From positions 17,505 to 81,504 of the forward strand of contig JACPMF010000009.1 in assembly GCA_016186145.1 (NCBI GenBank): a stretch of 64,000 bases of DNA, read 5' to 3'. The notes beneath the pieces were generated by a model. The model had not been told where the DNA came from and searched no databases. It saw only the letters and a program-made list of their open reading frames with translations. The DNA comes from Candidatus Sungiibacteriota bacterium. GTDB lineage: Bacteria > Patescibacteriota > Minisyncoccia > Sungbacterales > SURF-37. The position numbers were made by a program, and so were the translations under genes. Positions 3 to 58,303 of the stretch are shown piece after piece (within the stretch, counting starts at the first letter, position 1; each line of letters begins with the position of its first letter).

Positions 3-308
3 ATGGCTGCTTCCGGCGCGGCACTCCTGCTCACGGCAGGCACAAAAGGGAAACGGTTCGCCTTGCCAAACTCAGAAGTGCTGATTCACCAGGTCATGGC
101 CGGCGGCATCGAAGGGCAGGCGGTTGAAATAGAGATCGCTTCACGGCACATCTTGCGGCTCAAGCAAAAACTGAACGAAATTCTTGCCAAACATACCAAC
201 CAGGCGCTCGCGAAAGTCGAAAAAGACACAGACCGCGACTACTACATGAATGCGGAGGAGGCGAAGAAGTACGGGATAATCGATGAGATAATAAAGAAGA
301 AGAAATGA
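3..308 (+). CDS. clpP: ATP-dependent Clp protease proteolytic subunit, C-terminal fragment (5' end outside window)
   Basis: Translation matches the ClpP C-terminus ([11 protein letters not shown]...GQA.EIEI...ILKHT...[20 protein letters not shown]). Confidence 0.85.
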
Positions 309-526
309 AATTTGTATTTACACGGCATGCCGTAGAACGTTGCTCTGAAAGAAATATAAAATTGAAAGATATAAAATATGCGGTAACGTCGCCTGATAAA
401 TTACGCATTGTAGCCGGAGGCGCGATTGAAGCATCAAAATTGATTCGGCAAAAAGTTTTGATCGTACGCTTCGAAATAAACAAAGAAATAAGGAAAATAA
501 TAACAGCATTTTATGAATCCCGTTAG
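305..526 (+). CDS. DUF4258-like small protein (putative toxin of a DUF4258/DUF2283 pair)
   Basis: 73 aa, [10 protein letters not shown] motif typical of DUF4258; the start overlaps the clpP stop. The TAG stop is supplied by the left terminus of an inserted hairpin element. Confidence 0.45.
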
Positions 527-678
527 AAGTCCTGCCTGTCGGCCTGCCTGCCGGTAGGCAGGCGGGCAGGCGCGATCACTTCTTAAACCATACGGGGTTC
601 ATAAGATATTAAAGGGATTAGAAATTTATTACGCAGACGGCGATCGTTTGATCGCGATCTGCTTCTAACGGGATGAAG
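513..678. mobile_element. MITE-like hairpin element, copy F (termini aTGAAtcccgttagaag ... cttctaacgggATGAAg)
   Basis: 16-17 bp inverted termini flanked by the direct repeat ATGAA. The interior carries the GC palindrome cctgcctgccggtaggcaggcgggcagg. The same termini recur at 19365, 30117 and 52118. Confidence 0.55.
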
Positions 679-894
679 ATTAGATACGATAAAGAGGCCG
701 ATGCGATTTACATTCGCATAAAATCGGCAAAAATAAAAAAAACAGTAAAAATAGAAGCCGATATTTTGGCAGACTTTGATGAAAAGGGAAATACCTGCGG
801 CATAGAGATTCTTAATGCTTCAAAACAGCTCCCAACAAAAGAGCGCAGTGTTGAAATTGGGAAAAGAAAAATGCCTATTCCGGCTTTTGCTTAA
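673..894 (+). CDS. DUF2283-like small protein (putative antitoxin partner)
   Basis: MKIRYDKEADAIYIRI... is the classic DUF2283 N-terminal motif. Its ATG lies in the duplicated target site of element F. Confidence 0.5.
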   Translation: MKIRYDKEADAIYIRIKSAKIKKTVKIEADILADFDEKGNTCGIEILNASKQLPTKERSVEIGKRKMPIPAFA

Positions 895-3803: not shown

Positions 3804-3885
3804 AGCTTCATTAACTTATTAGCTTCTTTGACTTAATTAGTTTCCGGCAATCCTAAAAACTAATGCAGCTATAAGCTAAAAGCTT

Positions 3886-4191
3886 TTAAAACACTGACGG
3901 CACCTCAATCCACCCTTTGTCCTTTTTCGGTGCCGCATCAACCAACTCTGCCGGGCTGCCGAAGGGAGCTATTTCCTCGTCCTCTCTCGACCCGTCCTCA
4001 AGCGTAATCAACAAACCCTCTTTAAGGCCACCGGCAAGGGGCAAAATGCCGGAAGTATCAACTTCGCTCAATTGATTAACAAAATCCAAAATTCCGTCGA
4101 GGTCTTTTTCAAACTTTTCAACCTCTCCCTCCGTTAACTCAATACGGGCAAGTTTGGCTATATGTTTTACGTCTTTGGCGTTTATTGACAT
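3886..4191 (-). CDS. gatC: Asp/Glu-tRNA amidotransferase subunit C
   Basis: ~100 aa; the N-terminus (VKHIAKLARIELTEGEVEKF..DL..IL.FV.QL) matches GatC. Sits directly downstream of gatA. Confidence 0.85.
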   Translation of the reverse strand: MSINAKDVKHIAKLARIELTEGEVEKFEKDLDGILDFVNQLSEVDTSGILPLAGGLKEGLLITLEDGSREDEEIAPFGSPAELVDAAPKKDKGWIEVPSVF

Positions 4192-4260: not shown

Positions 4261-6679
<2,419 letters not shown>

Positions 6680-6713
6680 TTATCCGCATGAAGCGAAGCG
6701 ATCTGCTTCTAAA

Positions 6714-7199
6714 TTATTCTCCCCCACCCCCTCTATAACTCGTAGAAAAAGCCCTCCGCACTGCGAATGTCCCGCCGCCGCAGTCGAATTCGCCGGTCGC
6801 GGCAAGCGTCACGTCATATATCGGCGGATCGGAGCTTACCTCAATTTTGTCGGCGCGAAGCCGATAACAGGCGCCGCTCGGAAGCGTTACCCACCCTGAG
6901 TCATAACAATTTGATCCGGGTCCGGGGAGAGGAAAACAAAAAGGATTTTCTCCCCGATCGTCATAAAGACCTTTTTCGATTGCCTCGTCAGCAGCATAAA
7001 GCGCAACGAAAGAATCGGCAATCTCGCCTGATATGCGAAGTTCCGTAAAGACGACGGTGAAAATGCCGATGGAAATGGAAAGCAACGCGGTAAGAATAAG
7101 GATTACGAGAAGAAGAGTGATACCGCTCGGTGTTGAGAAATTAACTGGGCTACGCCAACTTCTTAGTTTCTTAATTTCTTTATTTCTTAATTTCTTCAT
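6714..7199 (-). CDS. pilus-associated protein with non-canonical pilin-like N-terminal helix
   Basis: Charged leader then PSG|ITLLLVILILTALL hydrophobic helix without the +5 Glu. Last gene of the pilin-like operon. Confidence 0.35.
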   Translation of the reverse strand: MKKLRNKEIKKLRSWRSPVNFSTPSGITLLLVILILTALLSISIGIFTVVFTELRISGEIADSFVALYAADEAIEKGLYDDRGENPFCFPLPGPGSNCYDSGWVTLPSGACYRLRADKIEVSSDPPIYDVTLAATGEFDCGGGTFAVRRAFSTSYRGGGGE

Positions 7200-7201
7200 G
7201 G

Positions 7202-7825
7202 TTATAGGTCGCGCTGACGGGCGGTTACCGTAGTCTGAATCTCGAAATCGGTTTCGAGCCGGACTGTGGAACTCACCGACCGCGCTTCAATCACAATGGT
7301 TACTCGGGGCTGGCCGTCCGAGGGGCCTAATACCTGTCCAACGACATAGAAAAATAATTTGCCAACGGCAACGGCTGACGAAGTCATAGCCGACCCCAGA
7401 CCGCAGTCGCCAATAACGGGACTCTGTCTTTTTATCGCGCCATCCTCAAAACAATACAAAACAGAAGTGCCCTCTTGCCGAGTAAATCTTAACTGGCTGC
7501 AACCGGCCGTCCCGCAGCCACCAACCAAAAAATCGGAACCGGTTCTTATCTCTTTTGCCATAAATTCGAACGTAAAACGAACGTTATCCTGAATATTTTG
7601 AATGTTTGAAGCCTTTACCTGAGCCTGATTGATTGAAAGCATGGCACCGACAGCAATAACAATAACCACGGAAAAAATACCGGTGGAAATGAGCATCTCC
7701 AAAAGCGTAAATCCATGCCCGAATTCTGAATTCTGAATTCTGAATGCTAAACATCGCCGCCTCGTTTTGCGTAAGACGGATAGATTTTTGCAATTATTCA
7801 GCATTTGGCATTTATAATTCAGCAT
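7202..7825 (-). CDS. type IV pilin-like protein (prepilin, G|FTLLEM)
   Basis: Class III signal ...GHG|FTLLEMLISTGIFSVVIV. Start chosen at the ATG with a GGAGAT RBS at 7823-7825. The upstream part of the frame is made of a GAATTCT x3 tandem repeat. Confidence 0.6.
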   Translation of the reverse strand: MLNYKCQMLNNCKNLSVLRKTRRRCLAFRIQNSEFGHGFTLLEMLISTGIFSVVIVIAVGAMLSINQAQVKASNIQNIQDNVRFTFEFMAKEIRTGSDFLVGGCGTAGCSQLRFTRQEGTSVLYCFEDGAIKRQSPVIGDCGLGSAMTSSAVAVGKLFFYVVGQVLGPSDGQPRVTIVIEARSVSSTVRLETDFEIQTTVTARQRDL

Positions 7826-12645: not shown

Positions 12646-12844
12646 ATGAATTTCCTTTTTGTCTTTATTTCCTCACTGCGAGCTTCTTCTAAAATTTTTC
12701 ATTACGGAGATGCAAATACAAATTAAGGAGCCGGCGAGTAACATAAGAAAAATTTGCTTACTTCAAATTTTTCTTAATGATGTTACGAAGCCGACGACGC
12801 AAATTTGTTTGTATCGGAGTTGAACAAATTTTAGAAGAAGCGAG

Positions 12845-13913: not shown

Positions 13914-14036
13914 TATAATGCTAATCTACGAATGAAATGCGAATGCCGCTAATTATTAGCATGACATATTCCAGTACTACGCTCGCCCGCTATTCGCGGC
14001 ATTCGCATATTATTTGCATAATTCGCATTATGCTTA
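13914..14036. promoter_or_regulatory. 123-bp leader/promoter repeat, copy 1 (immediately upstream of pilT)
   Basis: Identical to 16239-16361. Contains the IR gcgaatgccgc...gcggcattcgc and the hairpin gcataattcgcattatgc. Confidence 0.6.
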
Positions 14037-16238: not shown

Positions 16239-16361
16239 TATAATGCTAATCTACGAATGAAATGCGAATGCCGCTAATTATTAGCATGACATATTCCAGT
16301 ACTACGCTCGCCCGCTATTCGCGGCATTCGCATATTATTTGCATAATTCGCATTATGCTTA
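16239..16361. promoter_or_regulatory. 123-bp leader/promoter repeat, copy 2 (immediately upstream of pilB)
   Basis: 100% identical by eye to copy 1 at 13914-14036. Confidence 0.6.
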
Positions 16362-18007: not shown

Positions 18008-18114
18008 AGATAGAGTTAGAGGCGGATAAATACGGATAGCTACGCGGACCCATGCGGATCCGCATTAATCCGCGTTGTCATCTGCATAAATCCGCTTCTA
18101 TCATCTTTTTATTT

Positions 18115-19221: not shown

Positions 19222-19364
19222 CTACAGAGCTAAGAACTAAGCAAAAGGAGCTAAGAAAACACAGCCATTATTCGGGCTTCCTGGTTCTTAGTTCCTCGTT
19301 CTTAATTCAGGGTTGCGGATGCTTACTTAAGTATTATACCATAATTCTGCGATAATTGCGCATA

Positions 19365-19483
19365 AATCCCGTTAGAGATAGGAAATGCCGCAGGCATTTC
19401 CGTTGATTATGATTGGTATAATGGCTTTCAGGCACATAATGCTGTTGGGTGGCCAAATAAAAAGTTTAAATCTCTAACGGGAT
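19365..19483. mobile_element. MITE-like hairpin element, copy D (ATAAAtcccgttagagata ... atctctaacgggATAAAa)
   Basis: Inverted termini with the 5-bp flanking direct repeat ATAAA; the interior holds the sub-hairpin ggaaatgccgcaggcatttcc. Lies between pilM and comF. Confidence 0.55.
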
Positions 19484-19502
19484 AAAAACTGCAAAAACAG
19501 CT

Positions 19503-20830: not shown

Positions 20831-21107
20831 CGGTGAAAAAGTTTTGAAAATGTCCTTCTAATGCTTCAGGAGGAAACCGCAAAATTTTTCAATACCGCCG
20901 CGTAACGGCGGTTTATTTTTGAACGAAACATAAAAAAGGAAGCACAATGGCTTCCTTCTCACTACTTACTCAATATTATGGCGACCGGAATAGAAAAAAG
21001 ATTCCTCATAGGACATTACTAACGCGAAATAAAATTAAATATGGGTTTTGTAAATTTTGTAACGGGGTTCATGCCGCGTGTGGTGACTGATGGAGTTCCG
21101 ATGGGAA

Positions 21108-23281: not shown

Positions 23282-23411
23282 TAACTAATCCTCCTTATAT
23301 CGTAAATTTCTTGCAAAGAGCTGTCACTTTCTTACTCGTACTATTTTTACTATTTCCTGTCAACGTTTCGTAAATCAACCCTGCAATTTCTTTCATCGCC
23401 TTTTCTTTCAT
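23282..23411. repeat. diverged copy of glyA 3'-terminal module, copy 2
   Basis: Collinear with 25362-25481 at roughly 75% identity (by-eye estimate). Confidence 0.6.
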
Positions 23412-23493
23412 CCCGTTACAAAATTTACATAAGTCATTTACGAAATATAACCATTTTTAGTCTAAAAAAACAAAATTCAATCAAAGATCTTGT
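23411..23493. mobile_element. hairpin element H (tcccgttacaaaatttaca ... tgtaaattttgtaacggga)
   Basis: 19-bp perfect inverted repeat sharing the TCCCGTTA core; a half-copy lies at 21048-21074. Confidence 0.45.
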
Positions 23494-23561
23494 AAATTTT
23501 GTAACGGGATTCGTGCCTAACTGTTGTGGCAACGAACGGCGTCACAATATAAAGCCGGAGG

Positions 23562-29108: not shown

Positions 29109-29930
29109 TTACACTGCCATCGGCGCTTTAATCGCCGGATGCGACTCATAATCAACAAGCTGAATATCGTCCATAGTGAAACTGTCTATATCTTTTACTT
29201 CTGGTTTAAGCCGCAATTTTGACAACGGAAATGTTTCGCGTCCTAATTGCTCTTTAACTTGATCAAAGTGGTTATGGTAAATATGGGAATCGCCAAGTGT
29301 ATGAATAAATTCTCCCGGAGTCAAACCCGCAACTTGCGCGACCATGTGTAAAAGCAAGGAGTAAGAAGCGATATTAAAAGGTACTCCCAAAAACATATCG
29401 CACGAGCGCTGGTACATCTGGAGCGACAGTCTTCCGTCTGCAACATAAAACTGTGAAAAGGCATGGCACGGCGGAAGAGCCATCTGATCAATTTCTCCGG
29501 GATTCCACGCAGTCAAAATAAGACGCCGGTCATGCGGGTCTTTTTTAATTCGCTCTATGACATCTTTGATCTGGTCTATTTCTCTGCCATCCGGGGCTCT
29601 CCATGATCTCCATTGAACGCCGTATATCCTACCGACATCTCCATTAAAACGAGCTTTCGGTTTCCAGTACGGCGCCTCGGCATTTGCATCCCAAATACGC
29701 GCGCCAAGCTCATTTAATTTTTTTACATCGGAACTGCCCTGCAAAAACCACAAAAGCTCGGCCTTAACTGGATTAAAAGCAAGTTTTTTGGTGGTTATCG
29801 CCGGAAAACCATCGCTCATCTTGTACCTCATCTGCATTCCAAAAACCGCTCTGGTCGGAATTCCTGTCCGATTCGGCTTATCAACACCGTTTTCAAGAAT
29901 ATATTTTAGTGAATCGAGGTATTGTTTCAT
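29109..29930 (-). CDS. thyA: thymidylate synthase (ThyA type)
   Basis: MKQYLDSLKYILENG..K.NRTG, catalytic LPPCHAFSQFYV, and Asn in GVPFNIASY (dUMP specificity). Start set at Met57 of the track ORF by alignment. Confidence 0.9.
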   Translation of the reverse strand: MKQYLDSLKYILENGVDKPNRTGIPTRAVFGMQMRYKMSDGFPAITTKKLAFNPVKAELLWFLQGSSDVKKLNELGARIWDANAEAPYWKPKARFNGDVGRIYGVQWRSWRAPDGREIDQIKDVIERIKKDPHDRRLILTAWNPGEIDQMALPPCHAFSQFYVADGRLSLQMYQRSCDMFLGVPFNIASYSLLLHMVAQVAGLTPGEFIHTLGDSHIYHNHFDQVKEQLGRETFPLSKLRLKPEVKDIDSFTMDDIQLVDYESHPAIKAPMAV

Positions 29931-30116
29931 GCGAATTTTATCCCGCAACTTCCGCGACCGAAGGGAGCGCGAGGTTGGCGAGGACCCCGCACCTCCCGAA
30001 CTGCTGACTCGGTAAAATTCAGAGTCAGTATCGCGGAAGTACGGGACCGCGCACTCAAACCTCACTTCGTTCGGGATGGTGCGGTGGTTTACGAGCATTA
30101 GCGAGTAACTATAAAA

Positions 30117-30240
30117 TTCATCCCGTTAGAAGCAGATCGCGATCAAACAGTTGTCTTCTGCGTAGATTTTATTCATTTCTACTATTGTAAGGTATTAGCC
30201 TTTTAAAATTCGGTAGCGATCGCGGCTTCTAACGGGATTC
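30117..30240. mobile_element. MITE-like hairpin element, copy C (ttcatcccgttagaagc ... gcttctaacgggattc)
   Basis: Termini and subterminal gatcgcgatc match copy F in inverse orientation; TGAA/ATGAA duplication at the insertion point, which lies inside another repeat (gggtgctgaa^ttttatag). Confidence 0.55.
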
Positions 30241-30242
30241 AG

Positions 30243-30391
30243 CACCCAGCACATAAATTTACAGTCGTCGTTTAGGGTATTTCAAGGTTATTTCATCAGC
30301 CCCGTGATTAAAATTATCCGACGGATGTAAATTTATGTGCTGGGTGAAGGTTTTGTAACTAAAATTTCATCGCCTGCGGCTCGAAATTTTA
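30243..30391. repeat. composite 3'-UTR repeat, copy C2 (palindromic core cacccagcacataaatttaca...tgtaaatttatgtgctgggtg + conserved hairpin)
   Basis: Same flanks as copies A and B (hairpin ctaaaatttc...gaaattttag, ttacaaaacc); different self-complementary core; directly after the dcd stop. Confidence 0.5.
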
Positions 30392-40945: not shown

Positions 40946-41863
40946 TTATGTTTTTAAATTTCTGGAGTGGTATTTTTTGTGAATTTCGCGAAGCGCTTTG
41001 TCAGTAACATGCGTGTATATCTGCGTAGTGGTGATTTGCGCGTGCCCCAGAAGCTGCTGGACCGACCGCAAATCCGCTCCGTTTCGTAAAAGGTCGGTCG
41101 CAAACGCATGACGCAAACCGTGCGGCGTAATTTTTTTTGAAATGCCGGCCTGCAGAGCACATTTTTTAACAAGACGTTGAATAGAGCGCGGTGTCAAACG
41201 AAGCTCGGTACTGTTTTTTATTGAAGTTCCTTTTTTAAAATGAACAAACAACGCTTCATCAACATCACCGCGCTTATCGAGGTATTTTTGAAGCGCATCC
41301 CGCGCGCGCTCCGACAAAAACACGATGCGGATTTTATCGCCCTTGCCGCGCACTGAAAATTCATCGCGCTTCAAATTAATCGAGTCGCGACTTAGTTGGG
41401 CGAGTTCGGAAACGCGCAGGCCGGTCGAAAAAAAAAGTTCAAGAAGCGCGCGATCGCGAAGAGCAGTAAGCGTGTCCCCCTTCGGAGCGCCAAGCAATCG
41501 TTCGAGTTCGTCATGTTCGATTACTTCCAATTCACGGCTAGGTGCTTTCCCCAATTCAACTTTTTCCGGCGTTAAACTTTTGATATCGCGCTTGGCAAGA
41601 TACTTCAAAAAACTCCGCAGTGCTATCAAATGATAAAGCTGCGTCTGTTTTTTAAGCGGCTCACCATCGGCTCCACTAATGCGGTTTAGTTTGATGCGAT
41701 AGCTCCGAACCGCTTCTGCCGTAATATCTTGCGGTTTTTCAATGCCGGCAAGCTTTGAGAATCGGCGCAGATAACGGTCATAATTTTCAATGGTTTTCGG
41801 CGAACGATTCTTTTCTATTTCCAAATATTCTAAAAATTGTCTTCGCAATTCTTTTAAGGACAT
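40946..41863 (-). CDS. tyrosine recombinase XerC/XerD family
   Basis: C-terminal HGLRHAFATDLLRNGADLRSVQQLLGH...TQIYTHV (R..H..R..Y catalytic set), N-terminal SAM-like domain. Confidence 0.85.
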   Translation of the reverse strand: MSLKELRRQFLEYLEIEKNRSPKTIENYDRYLRRFSKLAGIEKPQDITAEAVRSYRIKLNRISGADGEPLKKQTQLYHLIALRSFLKYLAKRDIKSLTPEKVELGKAPSRELEVIEHDELERLLGAPKGDTLTALRDRALLELFFSTGLRVSELAQLSRDSINLKRDEFSVRGKGDKIRIVFLSERARDALQKYLDKRGDVDEALFVHFKKGTSIKNSTELRLTPRSIQRLVKKCALQAGISKKITPHGLRHAFATDLLRNGADLRSVQQLLGHAQITTTQIYTHVTDKALREIHKKYHSRNLKT

Positions 41864-42197
41864 TACCTATATGGTATCAGTTTTAGTCGCACAATAAAAT
41901 CCCACTCGCCATTTCAAAATTTTTCCAGCATTCGATTCGGACAAAACATCCTTACGCACTTCGCAATACGAATAAGAAAAATCTGAACTCAACCTCGTCC
42001 CGATTTCAGCGGGACTTGGGATTCAAACAAGCAGATTTTCCTTGTATTGCTTATGCGCTCGTCGTTTTGTAACCCAAATCTCTGTAATGGAAAAATTTTG
42101 GAATGGCTCGCTTAAGTAGACAATATAAAATGAAAAACCCGCTAGGGGTCTTGCGACATAGCGGGTAGACAGTTGGTCTGTCCAGTCCATCTGCACA

Positions 42198-48859: not shown

Positions 48860-49110
48860 CTACGCGGGGGCAAGCCCCCGCGGTTTTTAAGGATGACTCT
48901 GCCCCGCTCAAATTTTGCTTCGTGAGCCAAAGCGAAGCGCTTCGCCAGAAATGCGGAATGCGCCTATTCGGCGCGCGCTTCGCTCTATTCTAAAGTTTTA
49001 ATGTTGATTTAGTAAGGACGGCATTGCAAGGTGAAAGCAAAATTTGAGCGGGGTTAGCCCTCGTGCTCCGCCATTCACCGCGGCGGCAAGCCGCCGCAGT
49101 TTCTGGCGGA
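48860..49110. repeat. complex repeat: 20-bp inverted repeat gccccgctcaaattttgctt ... aagcaaaatttgagcggggt, flanked by two related GC hairpins
   Basis: Perfect 20-bp IR ~110 bp apart; each flank has a GC-rich hairpin (cgcgggggcaagcccccgcg / gcggcggcaagccgccgc) followed by ..ggaYKactctgsc. Confidence 0.5.
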
Positions 49111-50617: not shown

Positions 50618-51330
50618 TAACAGTACCTTGCCAGGAAATTATTCCTGCCAAGTGGCGTGCGGCTAAAGGATTACAAGCCGAGCCCTTGCGGACATTATGG
50701 AACCCGGGAATAAACAACATTATGTATCCGCCACAGGCGGATCAGTCCCGATCCGTTCCAAGAGTGCCGATTTTAGTCCTTTACTCGCATCATTCTTGGC
50801 AGGAATAGCTTATCACCCGCTCTCTTGAGCCATGGGAACACTAGCCCCGCACCAATTTTGCCTTATCAAACCGTAGGTTTTGTAAGTAAAAAGGAGGGGC
50901 AAAACACTTGAGCGAAGTGCGTGTGCCGGAACCCCGCAGTAGAGTAAGGCTCACTACGGGGCAAGTAGGCACGGATTCTGAAATAAGGGCGACCTGCCCC
51001 GTAGGGAACGCGAAGCGTTATCCTTCGGGGAGCACTTCGCCACAGAGTGGTAATGCAAAATTGGTGCTGGGGTATTTTCAAAATAGGCCCGATTTTAATA
51101 AAGGGCAGGCCCTTCGAGGACCAATGGCTCAAAAGAACGGGTGATTAGTTCAACTTTTAAAGAAAGGGTAGAGGTAACCCCCGATGAAGTTGCGGATAAT
51201 TCGCGGCAAGGAGAAACGGATTCCGATCCGTCTTCCGTTGCCGCCGGTTGGACGCCCGCATAGCACGCCGAAGGGCGCGCGTGGGTATAATCGTTCTGAA
51301 ACGCGGCGCCTGGAACGCGCCGCAAAGGAG
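50618..51330 (+). ncRNA. candidate structured non-coding RNA / very long leader downstream of the consensus promoter
   Basis: No convincing ORF for ~700 nt. Many local and long-range complementarities (e.g. cctgccaag/cttggcagg 140 nt apart; atccgccacaggcggat). Class not recognised. Confidence 0.3.
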
Positions 51331-52117: not shown

Positions 52118-52243
52118 ATGAATCCCGTTAGAGATATGAAACTTAAATCTTTTTATGCGAAACTAACAGCAATTGTTAGTTCATAAGTTGCCAGATAGTC
52201 AAGATGTGGAAACCTTAGGTTTCCTATCTCTAACGGGATGAAG
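52118..52243. mobile_element. MITE-like hairpin element, copy E (ATGAAtcccgttagagata ... tatctctaacgggATGAAg)
   Basis: Perfect 14-bp termini, ATGAA direct repeat; the right-hand ATGAA supplies the ATG of the ORF at 52238. Confidence 0.55.
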
Positions 52244-56126: not shown

Positions 56127-56480
56127 CGCTTCCCGTATGCCGGGATTTTTCAGCTTGCGGTGTAAACTGATACTCGGTATCCATAAAAATTTCCAGACTC
56201 CGATACAAACAAATTTGCGTCGCCCGTTTCACAAAATTTTCGAGAAAATTTGAAGTAAGCAAATTTTCTCTATTTTGTTTCGCGGGCTCCTTAATTTGTA
56301 GTTGTATCTTCGTAATGGAAATTTTTATGGACACCTCGCATATTTTATTCCACCTCCATCAATAAAAAATTCCGGCATACGGCTCGCGCGCCATACACAC
56401 ATACCGCTGCACCGCTATAAATGAATAAAAAGGAAGTGGATAAGAAAAAAGCCGCCCTCGGGCGGCTTTTTAAAATAATC

Positions 56481-58112: not shown

Positions 58113-58303
58113 CGCGAGTAAATGAAACTATAAAATTGAGCACCCCGTTAGATGCGGAAATATAGTAGTTTTCTGCGCCTGGCAAAGTTATACGCATTAT
58201 ACTTTTTGTAAATTTTTTCATGGTTTGTTCCGCTATCTAACGGGGTAAAGGTTTGGCAACTAAATTTTCTACGCCTGCGGCTTGAAAATTTAGGCCAAGC
58301 CCT
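58113..58303. repeat. composite 3'-UTR repeat, copy B (conserved hairpin + palindromic core ccccgttagatgcgg...ccgctatctaacgggg), inserted between ftsE and ftsX
   Basis: Flanks match copy A (16650-16835) at ~85% identity; the core palindrome differs but is self-complementary. Confidence 0.55.

Follow-up and report, generated by a model that had tools for sequence, protein, structure and literature searches.

Miniature hairpin elements with 4-bp flanking duplications at the start codons of genes in Candidatus Sungbacteria and other uncultivated bacteria

How can a bacterial gene accommodate a hairpin-forming insertion placed exactly on its initiation codon? The question is raised by a 64 kb stretch of DNA from Candidatus Sungbacteria, of the Candidate Phyla Radiation (CPR), hereafter called the window. 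In this window, a 156 bp element named F (518..673, plus strand; termini TCCCGTTAGAAG and CTTCTAACGGGA) stands between a DUF4258 toxin gene (305..526, plus strand) and a DUF2283 antitoxin gene (673..894, plus strand). F is bracketed by two copies of TGAA, located at 514..517 and 674..677 on the plus strand. On the left side, A513 and the following TG represent the original ATG, which now opens a 14-codon upstream open reading frame (uORF). On the right side, A673, the last base of the element, joins T674 and G675 to form the DUF2283 start codon, and the antitoxin gene begins at this junction. The toxin gene takes its last codons (..YESR*) and its TAG stop from the left terminus of F. A first-pass annotation of the window, made from the sequence alone, had placed F at the junction of these two genes, credited it with the new toxin stop and predicted the pre-insertion sequence. 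The identities of both genes and the origin of the stop are confirmed, and reading the window sequence with F and one repeat removed gives ...TTTTATGAAGATTAG, as predicted. A second element, E (52123..52238, plus strand, 116 bp), is flanked by TGAA at 52119-52122 and 52239-52242. It supplies the A of an ATG, as had also been claimed: A52238 and the adjacent TG start a 79-codon open reading frame (ORF) that has no Pfam match, and the upstream ATG at 52118 opens a 22-codon uORF.

F and E belong to a set of four canonical copies (F, B, C and E), which are accompanied in the window by two variants (D and G) and a half-site. The canonical copies start with TCCCGTTAGA(A/G) and end with the exact complement, and every copy, canonical or variant, has perfect inverted arms of 12-19 bp. 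With one mismatch allowed, TCCCGTTAGAR is found ten times in the window, always in inverted pairs, against a mean of 2.08 and a maximum of 6 in dinucleotide shuffles of the window, none of the 100 shuffles reaching 10. The earlier reading of four full copies with conserved inverted termini is thus borne out at the sequence level. The copies fold into hairpins far more stable than those of shuffled sequences (z = -3.5 to -6.5), in keeping with the hairpin-rich interiors first described. Unitigs built from short reads of this genome stop at the element, which could be taken as the mark of an assembly artefact or of a chance palindrome. Such breaks are those expected from a dispersed repeat, and the same structure recurs in more than 100 genomes that were assembled independently, as well as in two metagenome contigs; together with the shuffles, these observations refute an artefactual origin.

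The termini are not peculiar to this Sungbacteria genome. A scan of one genome per species with the pattern TCCCGTTAGA-N(85-115)-TCTAACGGGA recovered them in at least 120 loci of species-representative genomes (labelled by L and a number, about 0.95 Mb together), from more than 100 other uncultivated bacteria. Among the matches listed, and judging from record titles, about 94 loci are from Patescibacteria, including Saccharibacteria, Paceibacterota, Kaiser-, Nomura-, Yanofsky- and Harrisonbacteria, and 13 are from other phyla (6 Omnitrophota, 3 Planctomycetota, 1 Elusimicrobia, 1 WOR-3 and 2 labelled Gammaproteobacteria), the rest being unclassified. The same 13-bp ends are common to most CPR lineages and to several unrelated phyla. 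The copies outside the CPR make up a subfamily of 105-106 bp (AGACCTC... stems) and lie behind Shine-Dalgarno-led genes, which makes binning errors unlikely. Gene exchange between Omnitrophota and Patescibacteria has been reported in groundwater (PMC12455944). No match was obtained in viral contigs. Copies can be dense: 4-5 of them occur within 8 kb of one locus (L099, 325-6373) among tightly packed, small, co-oriented genes, each copy at a start codon, and a Harrisonbacteria contig (L125, 1347-1678 and 9042-9286) carries four copies in 14 kb, two of them in tandem and one before the gene of the ribosome recycling factor (RRF). Orientation could be assigned to 129 copies from the TG beside one end, and 13 others could not be oriented. 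The window itself appears to be an ordinary CPR chromosome segment, its proteins being 50-62% identical to Parcubacteria proteins. Pfam scans of 58 of its substantial ORFs (nearly all those of at least 120 aa outside the larger genes) identified gatA, ligA, a type IV pilus cluster, glyA, folA, thyA, leuS, glmS, L10/L12, L19, prfB and ftsEX. The gcgatcgc found inside copies had raised the possibility of a cyanobacterial origin or of a Nezha-type MITE (miniature inverted-repeat transposable element); both were rejected, HIP1 not being enriched in the window (3 sites against 2.05 expected) and the genome belonging to Candidatus Sungbacteria.

The flanks of the copies bear the mark of insertion. 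In 97 of the 129 oriented copies, the longest identity between the end of the left flank and the beginning of the right flank is exactly 4 bp. The duplicated sequence varies from site to site (TGAA, TGGA, TGAG, TGCG, TGCA, TGTA or TAAA, typically TGRR), and copies with relaxed spacing add TTAA and CGAAG flank repeats. The window copies had initially been assigned a 5-bp repeat; the repeat is actually 4 bp long (TGAA, TAAA, TTCA), the fifth base being the element's own terminal A, which pairs with the terminal T and is replaced by G in the C...G-ended variants. Indeed, C...G-ended variants are still flanked by 4-bp repeats, which assigns the terminal base pair to the element. The base preceding the left repeat is A in 93 and G in 3 of these 97 copies, so the original target was itself an ATG or a GTG. 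Being of fixed 4-bp length and site-dependent in sequence, the duplication suggests that a transposase in trans, presumably of the DDE type, makes a staggered double-strand cut.

Mobility is also apparent within and between genomes. Near-identical copies are found at different genes of one genome (98% in L092, 96% in L099), and two loci of the same metagenome-assembled genome (L099 and L110) have copies that are 89% identical with different repeats, TGAA and TGCG. The distribution is patchy: among orthologues of PilC, LysRS, ClpP and PheT from different species, some carry the element and others do not, the N-termini being alignable from the junction ATG onwards. Some copies are in tandem or nested. 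Excision footprints, sought as ATGRRTGRR at gene starts, are not enriched (23 same versus 59 different).

Insertion on start codons is the rule across the family. In 118 of 129 copies, the ORF that begins at the junction ATG is at least 60 codons long or extends past the limit of the locus (median 224 codons); the corresponding figure for random ATGs of the same loci is 29%. The products are diverse, with 129 Pfam families among 115 proteins, and the host genes include those of L17, L9, RRF, TopA, LysRS/AspRS, PheT, SecDF, SecG, Adk, PilC and ClpP. The first-pass annotation had proposed that insertions fall on start codons on account of a preference for AT(G/A)AA. The position holds for the family as a whole; in the window, start codons of substantial ORFs are occupied by F and E alone, with B, C and G nearby but off the starts. 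As a sufficient cause, the target preference fails. The same loci have 317 ATGRR sites that coincide with ORF starts and 1060 that are located outside ORFs of at least 100 codons, so that site availability predicts about 23% of copies at starts, against 91% observed (83% when the 13 unoriented copies are counted as misses). Target sequence together with the loss of intragenic insertions is thus insufficient to explain the association with start codons: either start sites are sensed at integration, or copies that land elsewhere are eliminated or fail to become fixed.

The consensus of the oriented copies reads ATGRR, TCCCGTTAGA, RRY and CGCGRWC, then the interior, then GWYCGCG, WCCT, RYY and TCTAACGGGA, followed by TGRR. 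What defines a copy is a perfect 13-bp terminal inverted repeat, (T/C)CCCGTTAGA-RRY...RYY-TCTAACGGG(A/G). Stem positions 10-12 are Watson-Crick paired in 119-123 of the 129 copies with mixed AT, GC and CG pairs, i.e., they covary. Roughly half of the copies have, beyond a 4-nt bulge present in one arm only (WCCT), a second 7-bp helix (CGCGRWC / GWYCGCG), an asymmetry that gives the element a polarity. The YCT-RYY bulge motif is in the gene-proximal arm of 85 copies and in the distal arm of 6. In the window, the gene-proximal arms of F (GATCGCGATCTGCTTCTAACGGGA) and E (GGTTTCC-T-ATCTCTAACGGGA) both indicate plus polarity. GC skew is negative in 15 of 16 4-kb bins of the window and nearly all genes are on the minus strand; since F and E are co-oriented with plus-strand genes, polarity tracks the gene and not the replichore. 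Outside these features the interiors are unrelated between genomes and range from 3 to about 130 nt. The interior is dispensable. Copies measure 27-156 bp overall, with miniature copies of 27-99 bp that include a 29-bp hairpin flanked by TTAA. A small palindrome, TCCCGT-TA-ACGGGA, serving as host for TA-targeting MITEs was considered and rejected, no empty palindrome being present in the 0.95 Mb of loci.

Such an anatomy could also be that of a functional cis-regulatory RNA module, i.e., a 5′ leader or intercistronic hairpin bound or processed by a conserved factor, whose benefit to the host would drive its spread and retention, mobility being secondary; such a benefit might lie in translational control, or in processing by RNase III that restores a leaderless 5′ end to the mRNA. 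The invariance of the termini across phyla, their location exactly at the start codon, the 85 to 6 polarity, the strong fold, the enrichment at starts far above site availability and the presence on essential genes would all suit such a module, as would some copies that have no upstream ATG and are placed about 12 nt beyond a TATAAT box. The remaining features fit it poorly. Rfam 15 returns only tRNAs at gathering score in the window and nothing overlapping the elements at E <=10 in four loci. The interiors are unrelated, the downstream genes are functionally incoherent, and orthologues manage without the element. RNA-specific pairing finds no support, G.U showing no excess over A.C on the sense strand that would prove selection on the RNA: stem 1 has 15 versus 7, and the seven stem-2 positions do not differ. 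The flank duplications and the near-identical paralogous copies would in any case need transposition. Altogether, an RNA module seems improbable as the primary nature of the family.

How the downstream gene is expressed can be approached from the sequences around the junctions. Of 104 copies, 40 have a TANNNT box 5-9 nt upstream of the left ATG, compared with 9 when a control offset is used, and Shine-Dalgarno-like motifs are not enriched there (13 versus 13). Many host genes thus look leaderless, and the hairpin would then begin at about +6 of the transcript. No published transcription start-site data for CPR were found in the literature. A promoter carried by the right end was rejected, bases -12 to -7 being RYYTCT, which is not -10-like. 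From the left ATG, translation would read ATG-RRT-CCC-GTT-AGA, i.e., MxPVR (for example MNPVR...). This uORF frame is stop-free across the interior in 38 of 101 copies, compared with 8-17 of 101 for each of the five other frames, and its openness depends on element length. It is open in 26 of 50 copies whose length is a multiple of three, where it stops at the TAA inside TCTAACGGGATG, and in 11 of 29 with a remainder of one, where it stops at the TGA of ATGA. With a remainder of two, which would fuse it in frame with the gene, it is open in only 1 of 22. The bias is significant (Fisher p = 1.4e-4; p = 1.3e-8 against control frames). A functional encoded peptide was rejected, the uORF products not being conserved beyond the part encoded by the terminus. 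The reading-frame pattern is what selection on translation would be expected to produce.

Taken together, these observations suggest, with a probability of roughly 70%, that the family consists of non-autonomous, hairpin-forming, MITE-like mobile DNA elements that are tolerated through start-codon regeneration and translational coupling. The MITE-like part of this reading, already put forward in the first-pass annotation, is supported, and about 140 additional copies in other genomes add weight to it. A trans-acting enzyme would cut with a 4-bp stagger around TGRR, nearly always the TG and the next two bases of a start codon. Since the element has A (or G) as its last base, its right junction followed by TGRR would re-create the ATG (or GTG) of the gene just 3′ of the hairpin, the original ATGRR being kept on the 5′ side. 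The element would be co-transcribed with its host gene, presumably from a leaderless promoter in many cases. Ribosomes starting at the retained upstream ATG would read MxPVR... into the hairpin and melt it. With selection placing the uORF stop at the TAA within TCTAACGGGATG or the TGA of ATGA, they would terminate on top of the true start and re-initiate. Such termination-reinitiation coupling would make insertion into essential genes tolerable. Polarity would in turn be attributable to selection on expression, which is plausible but unproven.

Several points weigh against this model. More than half of the uORFs stop early, including those of F and E and of the copies of the L099 array (12 codons), so that read-through coupling cannot be the sole route to the downstream ATG; nuclease trimming to a leaderless 5′ end, or a ribosome-binding site bridged by the hairpin, are possible alternatives. 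DDE transposases do not usually combine an asymmetric target with a fixed orientation. Neither an autonomous element nor a cognate transposase was detected in the ~0.95 Mb of loci, and none of the pairs of termini more than 200 bp apart in these loci encloses a gene. Empty alleles are also missing from what was searched. The predicted empty site of F had no match in the metagenome collection, a homologue search with the DUF2283 antitoxin returned only itself and hence no locus from a close relative, for none of the window copies could an empty allele be retrieved from a close relative, and the RRF locus of Harrisonbacteria is filled in both of two Rifle metagenome contigs. Finally, the scan required exact 10-nt termini spaced 105-135 bp apart and is thereby biased towards young canonical copies, and related copies are not fully independent observations.

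As regards the mobilising enzyme, the absence of a cognate transposase from the window, stated in the first-pass annotation, holds in the Pfam scans. They show no DDE or Y1 transposase and no intI among the 58 ORFs, the sole recombinase being a XerC/D-like tyrosine recombinase of 305 aa (40946-41863). A parent insertion sequence (IS) was sought as termini with at most two mismatches, 200-4000 bp apart and with common 4-bp flanks; the search yielded only combinations of separate small copies. The one recurrent mobile-element gene in the loci is Y1_Tnp (IS200-like; Pfam matches at E = 2.6e-9 and 1.9e-11), present in 6 of about 120 loci as five full genes and one fragment (L022 278-988, L116 1746-2474, L051 3586-4245, L011 7212-8003, L039 7567-8000 and L068 5606-5830). 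The Y1 genes of L022, L116 and L051 are bracketed by ACTTGG...CCAAGT or ACAAGGTT..AACCTTGT hairpins and not by TCCCGTTAGA. In detail, these hairpins (ACTTGGnnnn..nnnnCCAAGT, ACAAGGTTCAACCTTGT) resemble a unit of RAYT (the transposase associated with repetitive extragenic palindromes, REPs) or of IS200. Y1_Tnp is thus a separate mobile system in the same genomes, and it was rejected as the mobiliser, the three closely examined genes carrying their own, different hairpins.

A HUH (Y1) transposase of the IS200/IS605 or RAYT-REPIN kind deserves consideration nonetheless, as it would insert in one orientation 3′ of a target tetranucleotide, the right TGRR then being part of the element. It would naturally explain the strict polarity relative to an asymmetric target; the covariation of the stem base pairs and the asymmetric bulge recall substrates that are recognised when folded, and Y1_Tnp is the only such gene that recurs. 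REPINs are ~100-bp hairpins with two conserved ends in inverted orientation, variable spacers and many copies, much like the present family. Against this, the repeat sequence changes from site to site, is the same on the two sides and differs among close copies, which argues for a staggered cut rather than guide-specified cleavage. No internal tetranucleotide tracks the flank when bulge and stem RRY are compared with the flanks by eye, the window has no Y1 gene, and a RAYT gene is flanked by its own REPs, which is not the case of the three Y1 genes examined. To our knowledge, REPINs are extragenic and have not been described with target duplications; here, 4-bp duplications and a start-codon position are the rule. 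IS200/IS605 elements and their miniature derivatives (PATEs) likewise combine orientation-specific insertion at a short specific sequence with recognition of folded hairpins. They have no terminal inverted repeats, produce no duplication and carry separate subterminal hairpins at each end, whereas one long-range stem joins the ends of the present elements and the repeat varies with the site, leaving orientation specificity as the sole common trait. Mobilisation by a HUH enzyme is accordingly judged unlikely, and staggered cutting by a DDE-type transposase in trans is preferred. For such a transposase, no more than a lead is offered by piggyBac and IS1380 enzymes, which produce 4-5-bp duplications beside CC(C) termini, features that the duplication length and the CCC ends of the present family would suit. 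The piggyBac terminus is TTAA followed by CCCTAGAAAG, and one miniature copy (L123) shows TTAA and then CCCCGTTAGAAAT. ISEcp1, the one IS1380 member examined, was rejected as a representative, its termini (CCTAGATTCTACGT / CCTAAATTCCACGT) not being alignable with TCCCGTTAGA, and neither the window nor the loci showed an IS1380-like gene.

Among other systems, integron attC sites, or cassette boundaries, share a number of features with the family. They contain GTTRRRY / RYYYAAC core sites, which the GTTAGAR / YTCTAAC of the termini resemble, they measure 57-141 bp, and they have conserved ends, a variable interior and a bulged hairpin; the toxin-antitoxin neighbour of F would fit a cassette as well. 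In the present elements, the heptamers are in the inverted order (5′-GTTAGAR...YTCTAAC-3′, i.e., GTTRRR 5′ and YYYAAC 3′), with GTT/AAC at the open end of the stem, opposite to attC. The copies are dispersed 3-22 kb apart before housekeeping genes and not in arrays, the window has the XerC/D-like gene and no intI, and the flanks are true 4-bp duplications, all of which makes an attC identity very improbable. Bacterial MITEs (Correia/NEMIS of Neisseria, ERIC/IRU, RUP, Nezha of Nostoc) are closer, being small, non-coding, multi-copy and hairpin-forming, with terminal inverted repeats, a short target duplication, co-transcription with neighbouring genes and no transposase of their own. The present family has the inverted repeats, the fixed-length duplication and the small, multi-copy, non-coding nature of a MITE; a matching autonomous IS was found neither among the scanned ORFs of the window nor in the loci. 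Known MITE families are confined to particular lineages, with conserved interiors and, in most cases, a parent IS that can be recognised; the TCCCGTTAGA family differs by its cross-phylum 13-bp termini, largely unrelated interiors, start-codon TGRR duplication, regeneration of the ATG by the terminal base, fixed polarity and uORF frame signature, no parent IS having been found. Rickettsia palindromic elements and the bypass elements of byp / T4 gene 60 type are also mobile hairpins tolerated in expressed genes through translation. They lie inside coding sequences, where they are read in frame or hopped over (byps are flanked by matching codons), whereas the present element lies at the initiation codon, where the data favour termination and re-initiation and in-frame reading is avoided (1/22).

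A further possibility, which we hold only tentatively, is that the family represents a class of mobile hairpins recognising translation or transcription starts, for example the +1 to +5 edge of the open complex at leaderless genes, in one orientation. It would be moved by an enzyme family not yet linked to transposition and co-opted in CPR, Omnitrophota and Planctomycetota as a portable initiation or coupling module before essential genes. No description of the family was found in the searchable literature by its sequence, by MITE together with start codon, or by CPR MITE and leaderless terms. If the MITE-like interpretation is correct, this would be the first described mobile element that normally lands on the initiation codon and repairs it with its own terminal base, which would explain how a parasite can sit before ClpP, RRF, ribosomal-protein and tRNA-synthetase genes in genomes of ~1 Mb. 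The 13-bp ends and the MxPVR uORF would also provide a sequence handle on mRNA initiation in CPR, where a large share of the host genes look leaderless, and on the movement of DNA between CPR and co-occurring Omnitrophota and Planctomycetota. In practice, gene callers would misplace starts or call spurious small ORFs at copies, and short-read assemblies break there. The predicted mobilising enzyme, which would act on a 13-bp hairpin end and cut with a 4-bp stagger, gives the search for new enzymes a well-defined aim.

The remaining canonical copies of the window lie off start codons. Element B (19367..19482, minus strand, 116 bp; TAAA at 19363-19366 and 19483-19486) occupies the intergenic region between the divergent pilM and comF-like genes, its polarity motif GGCATTTCC-T-ATCTCTAACGGGA being on the minus strand, towards pilM. 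Element C (30121..30237, minus strand, 117 bp) has TTCA flanks at 30117-30120 and 30238-30241, i.e., TGAA on the minus strand. Its polarity is minus, and it lies just upstream of a TATAGT box and of the thyA ORF, which starts at 30098. The thymidylate synthase Pfam domain of this ORF (29109-30098) begins at residue 57, so the true thyA start may be downstream and C farther from the gene. C shares with F the GATCGCGATCTGCTTCTAACGGGA end, the common subterminal region noted at the outset; it had also been placed inside another repeat, and in fact lies 2 nt outside a separate inverted-repeat element (30243-30346).

The first copy list was right on the four canonical copies and had missed one variant, G (58143..58245, minus strand, 103 bp), which is located between ftsE and ftsX. 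It has C...G termini (CCCCGTTAGATGCGGAA / TTCCGCTATCTAACGGGG; terminal sequences CCCCGTTAGAT...ATCTAACGGGG) and no flanking repeat. Variant D, first reported as a 19-bp inverted-repeat element at 23411-23493, is real and extends over 23411..23509 (minus strand, 99 bp); its 19-bp arms TCCCGTTACAAAATTTACA are perfect, and it is flanked by TTCA and TTCG. Read on the minus strand, its upstream copy is ACGAA, a decayed ATG, and its junction ATG opens only 38 codons. The half-site with a related core is confirmed at ~21046..21067 (minus strand), where ggcATGAA is followed by CCCCGTTACAAAATTTACAAAA; it consists of a left end only, matches the D arm and has the 19-nt arm and 8 flanking nt in common with D.

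In the other genomes, a minority of copies have no upstream ATGRR and follow TATAAT-N11-13-(A/G)CTTG or CCTG, the ATG of the gene still being at the right junction (L027 1064-1192, L061 4812-4919, L032 3556-3674, L016 ~7128-7239 and L010 ~3839-3950). L027 and L061 have the flank TATAATATAGAYnnnACTTG in common despite different phyla-level lineages, which hints at a promoter-carrying variant. Another variant, CCCCATTAGAAG...CTTCTAACGGGG (L022 1100-1240), directly follows a consensus TTGACA-17-TATAAT promoter with no ORF downstream and could be expressed as a free-standing hairpin RNA.

The Sungbacteria genome is unusually rich in hairpin repeats. Other inverted-repeat families of 100-230 bp are represented in the window at 12682-12841, 30243-30346, 41908-42107, 48902-49053, 50842-51074 and 56176-56335, and their arms have an AAA(A)TTT(T) core in common (e.g., CACCCAGCACATAAATTTACAG, GCCATTTCAAAATTTTTCCAG and CCCCGCTCAAATTTTGCTT). 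Variant D, with its TCCCGTTACAAAATTTACA arms, looks like a hybrid of the TCCCGTTAGA kind and this AAA(A)TTT(T) kind. The element at 41908-42107 adjoins the XerC/D-like gene. Two identical 84-bp inverted-repeat units (13931-14014 and 16256-16339), with identical flanks that contain the promoter-like sequence tataatgctaatctacg, sit upstream of two genes of the type IV pilus cluster. Overlapping GCGGAT/ATCCGC-like palindromes (…CGGATAGCTACGCGGACCCATGCGGATCCGC…) are found at the ends of two genes, at 18017-18100 and 6635-6686, and may represent another repeat family or bidirectional terminators.

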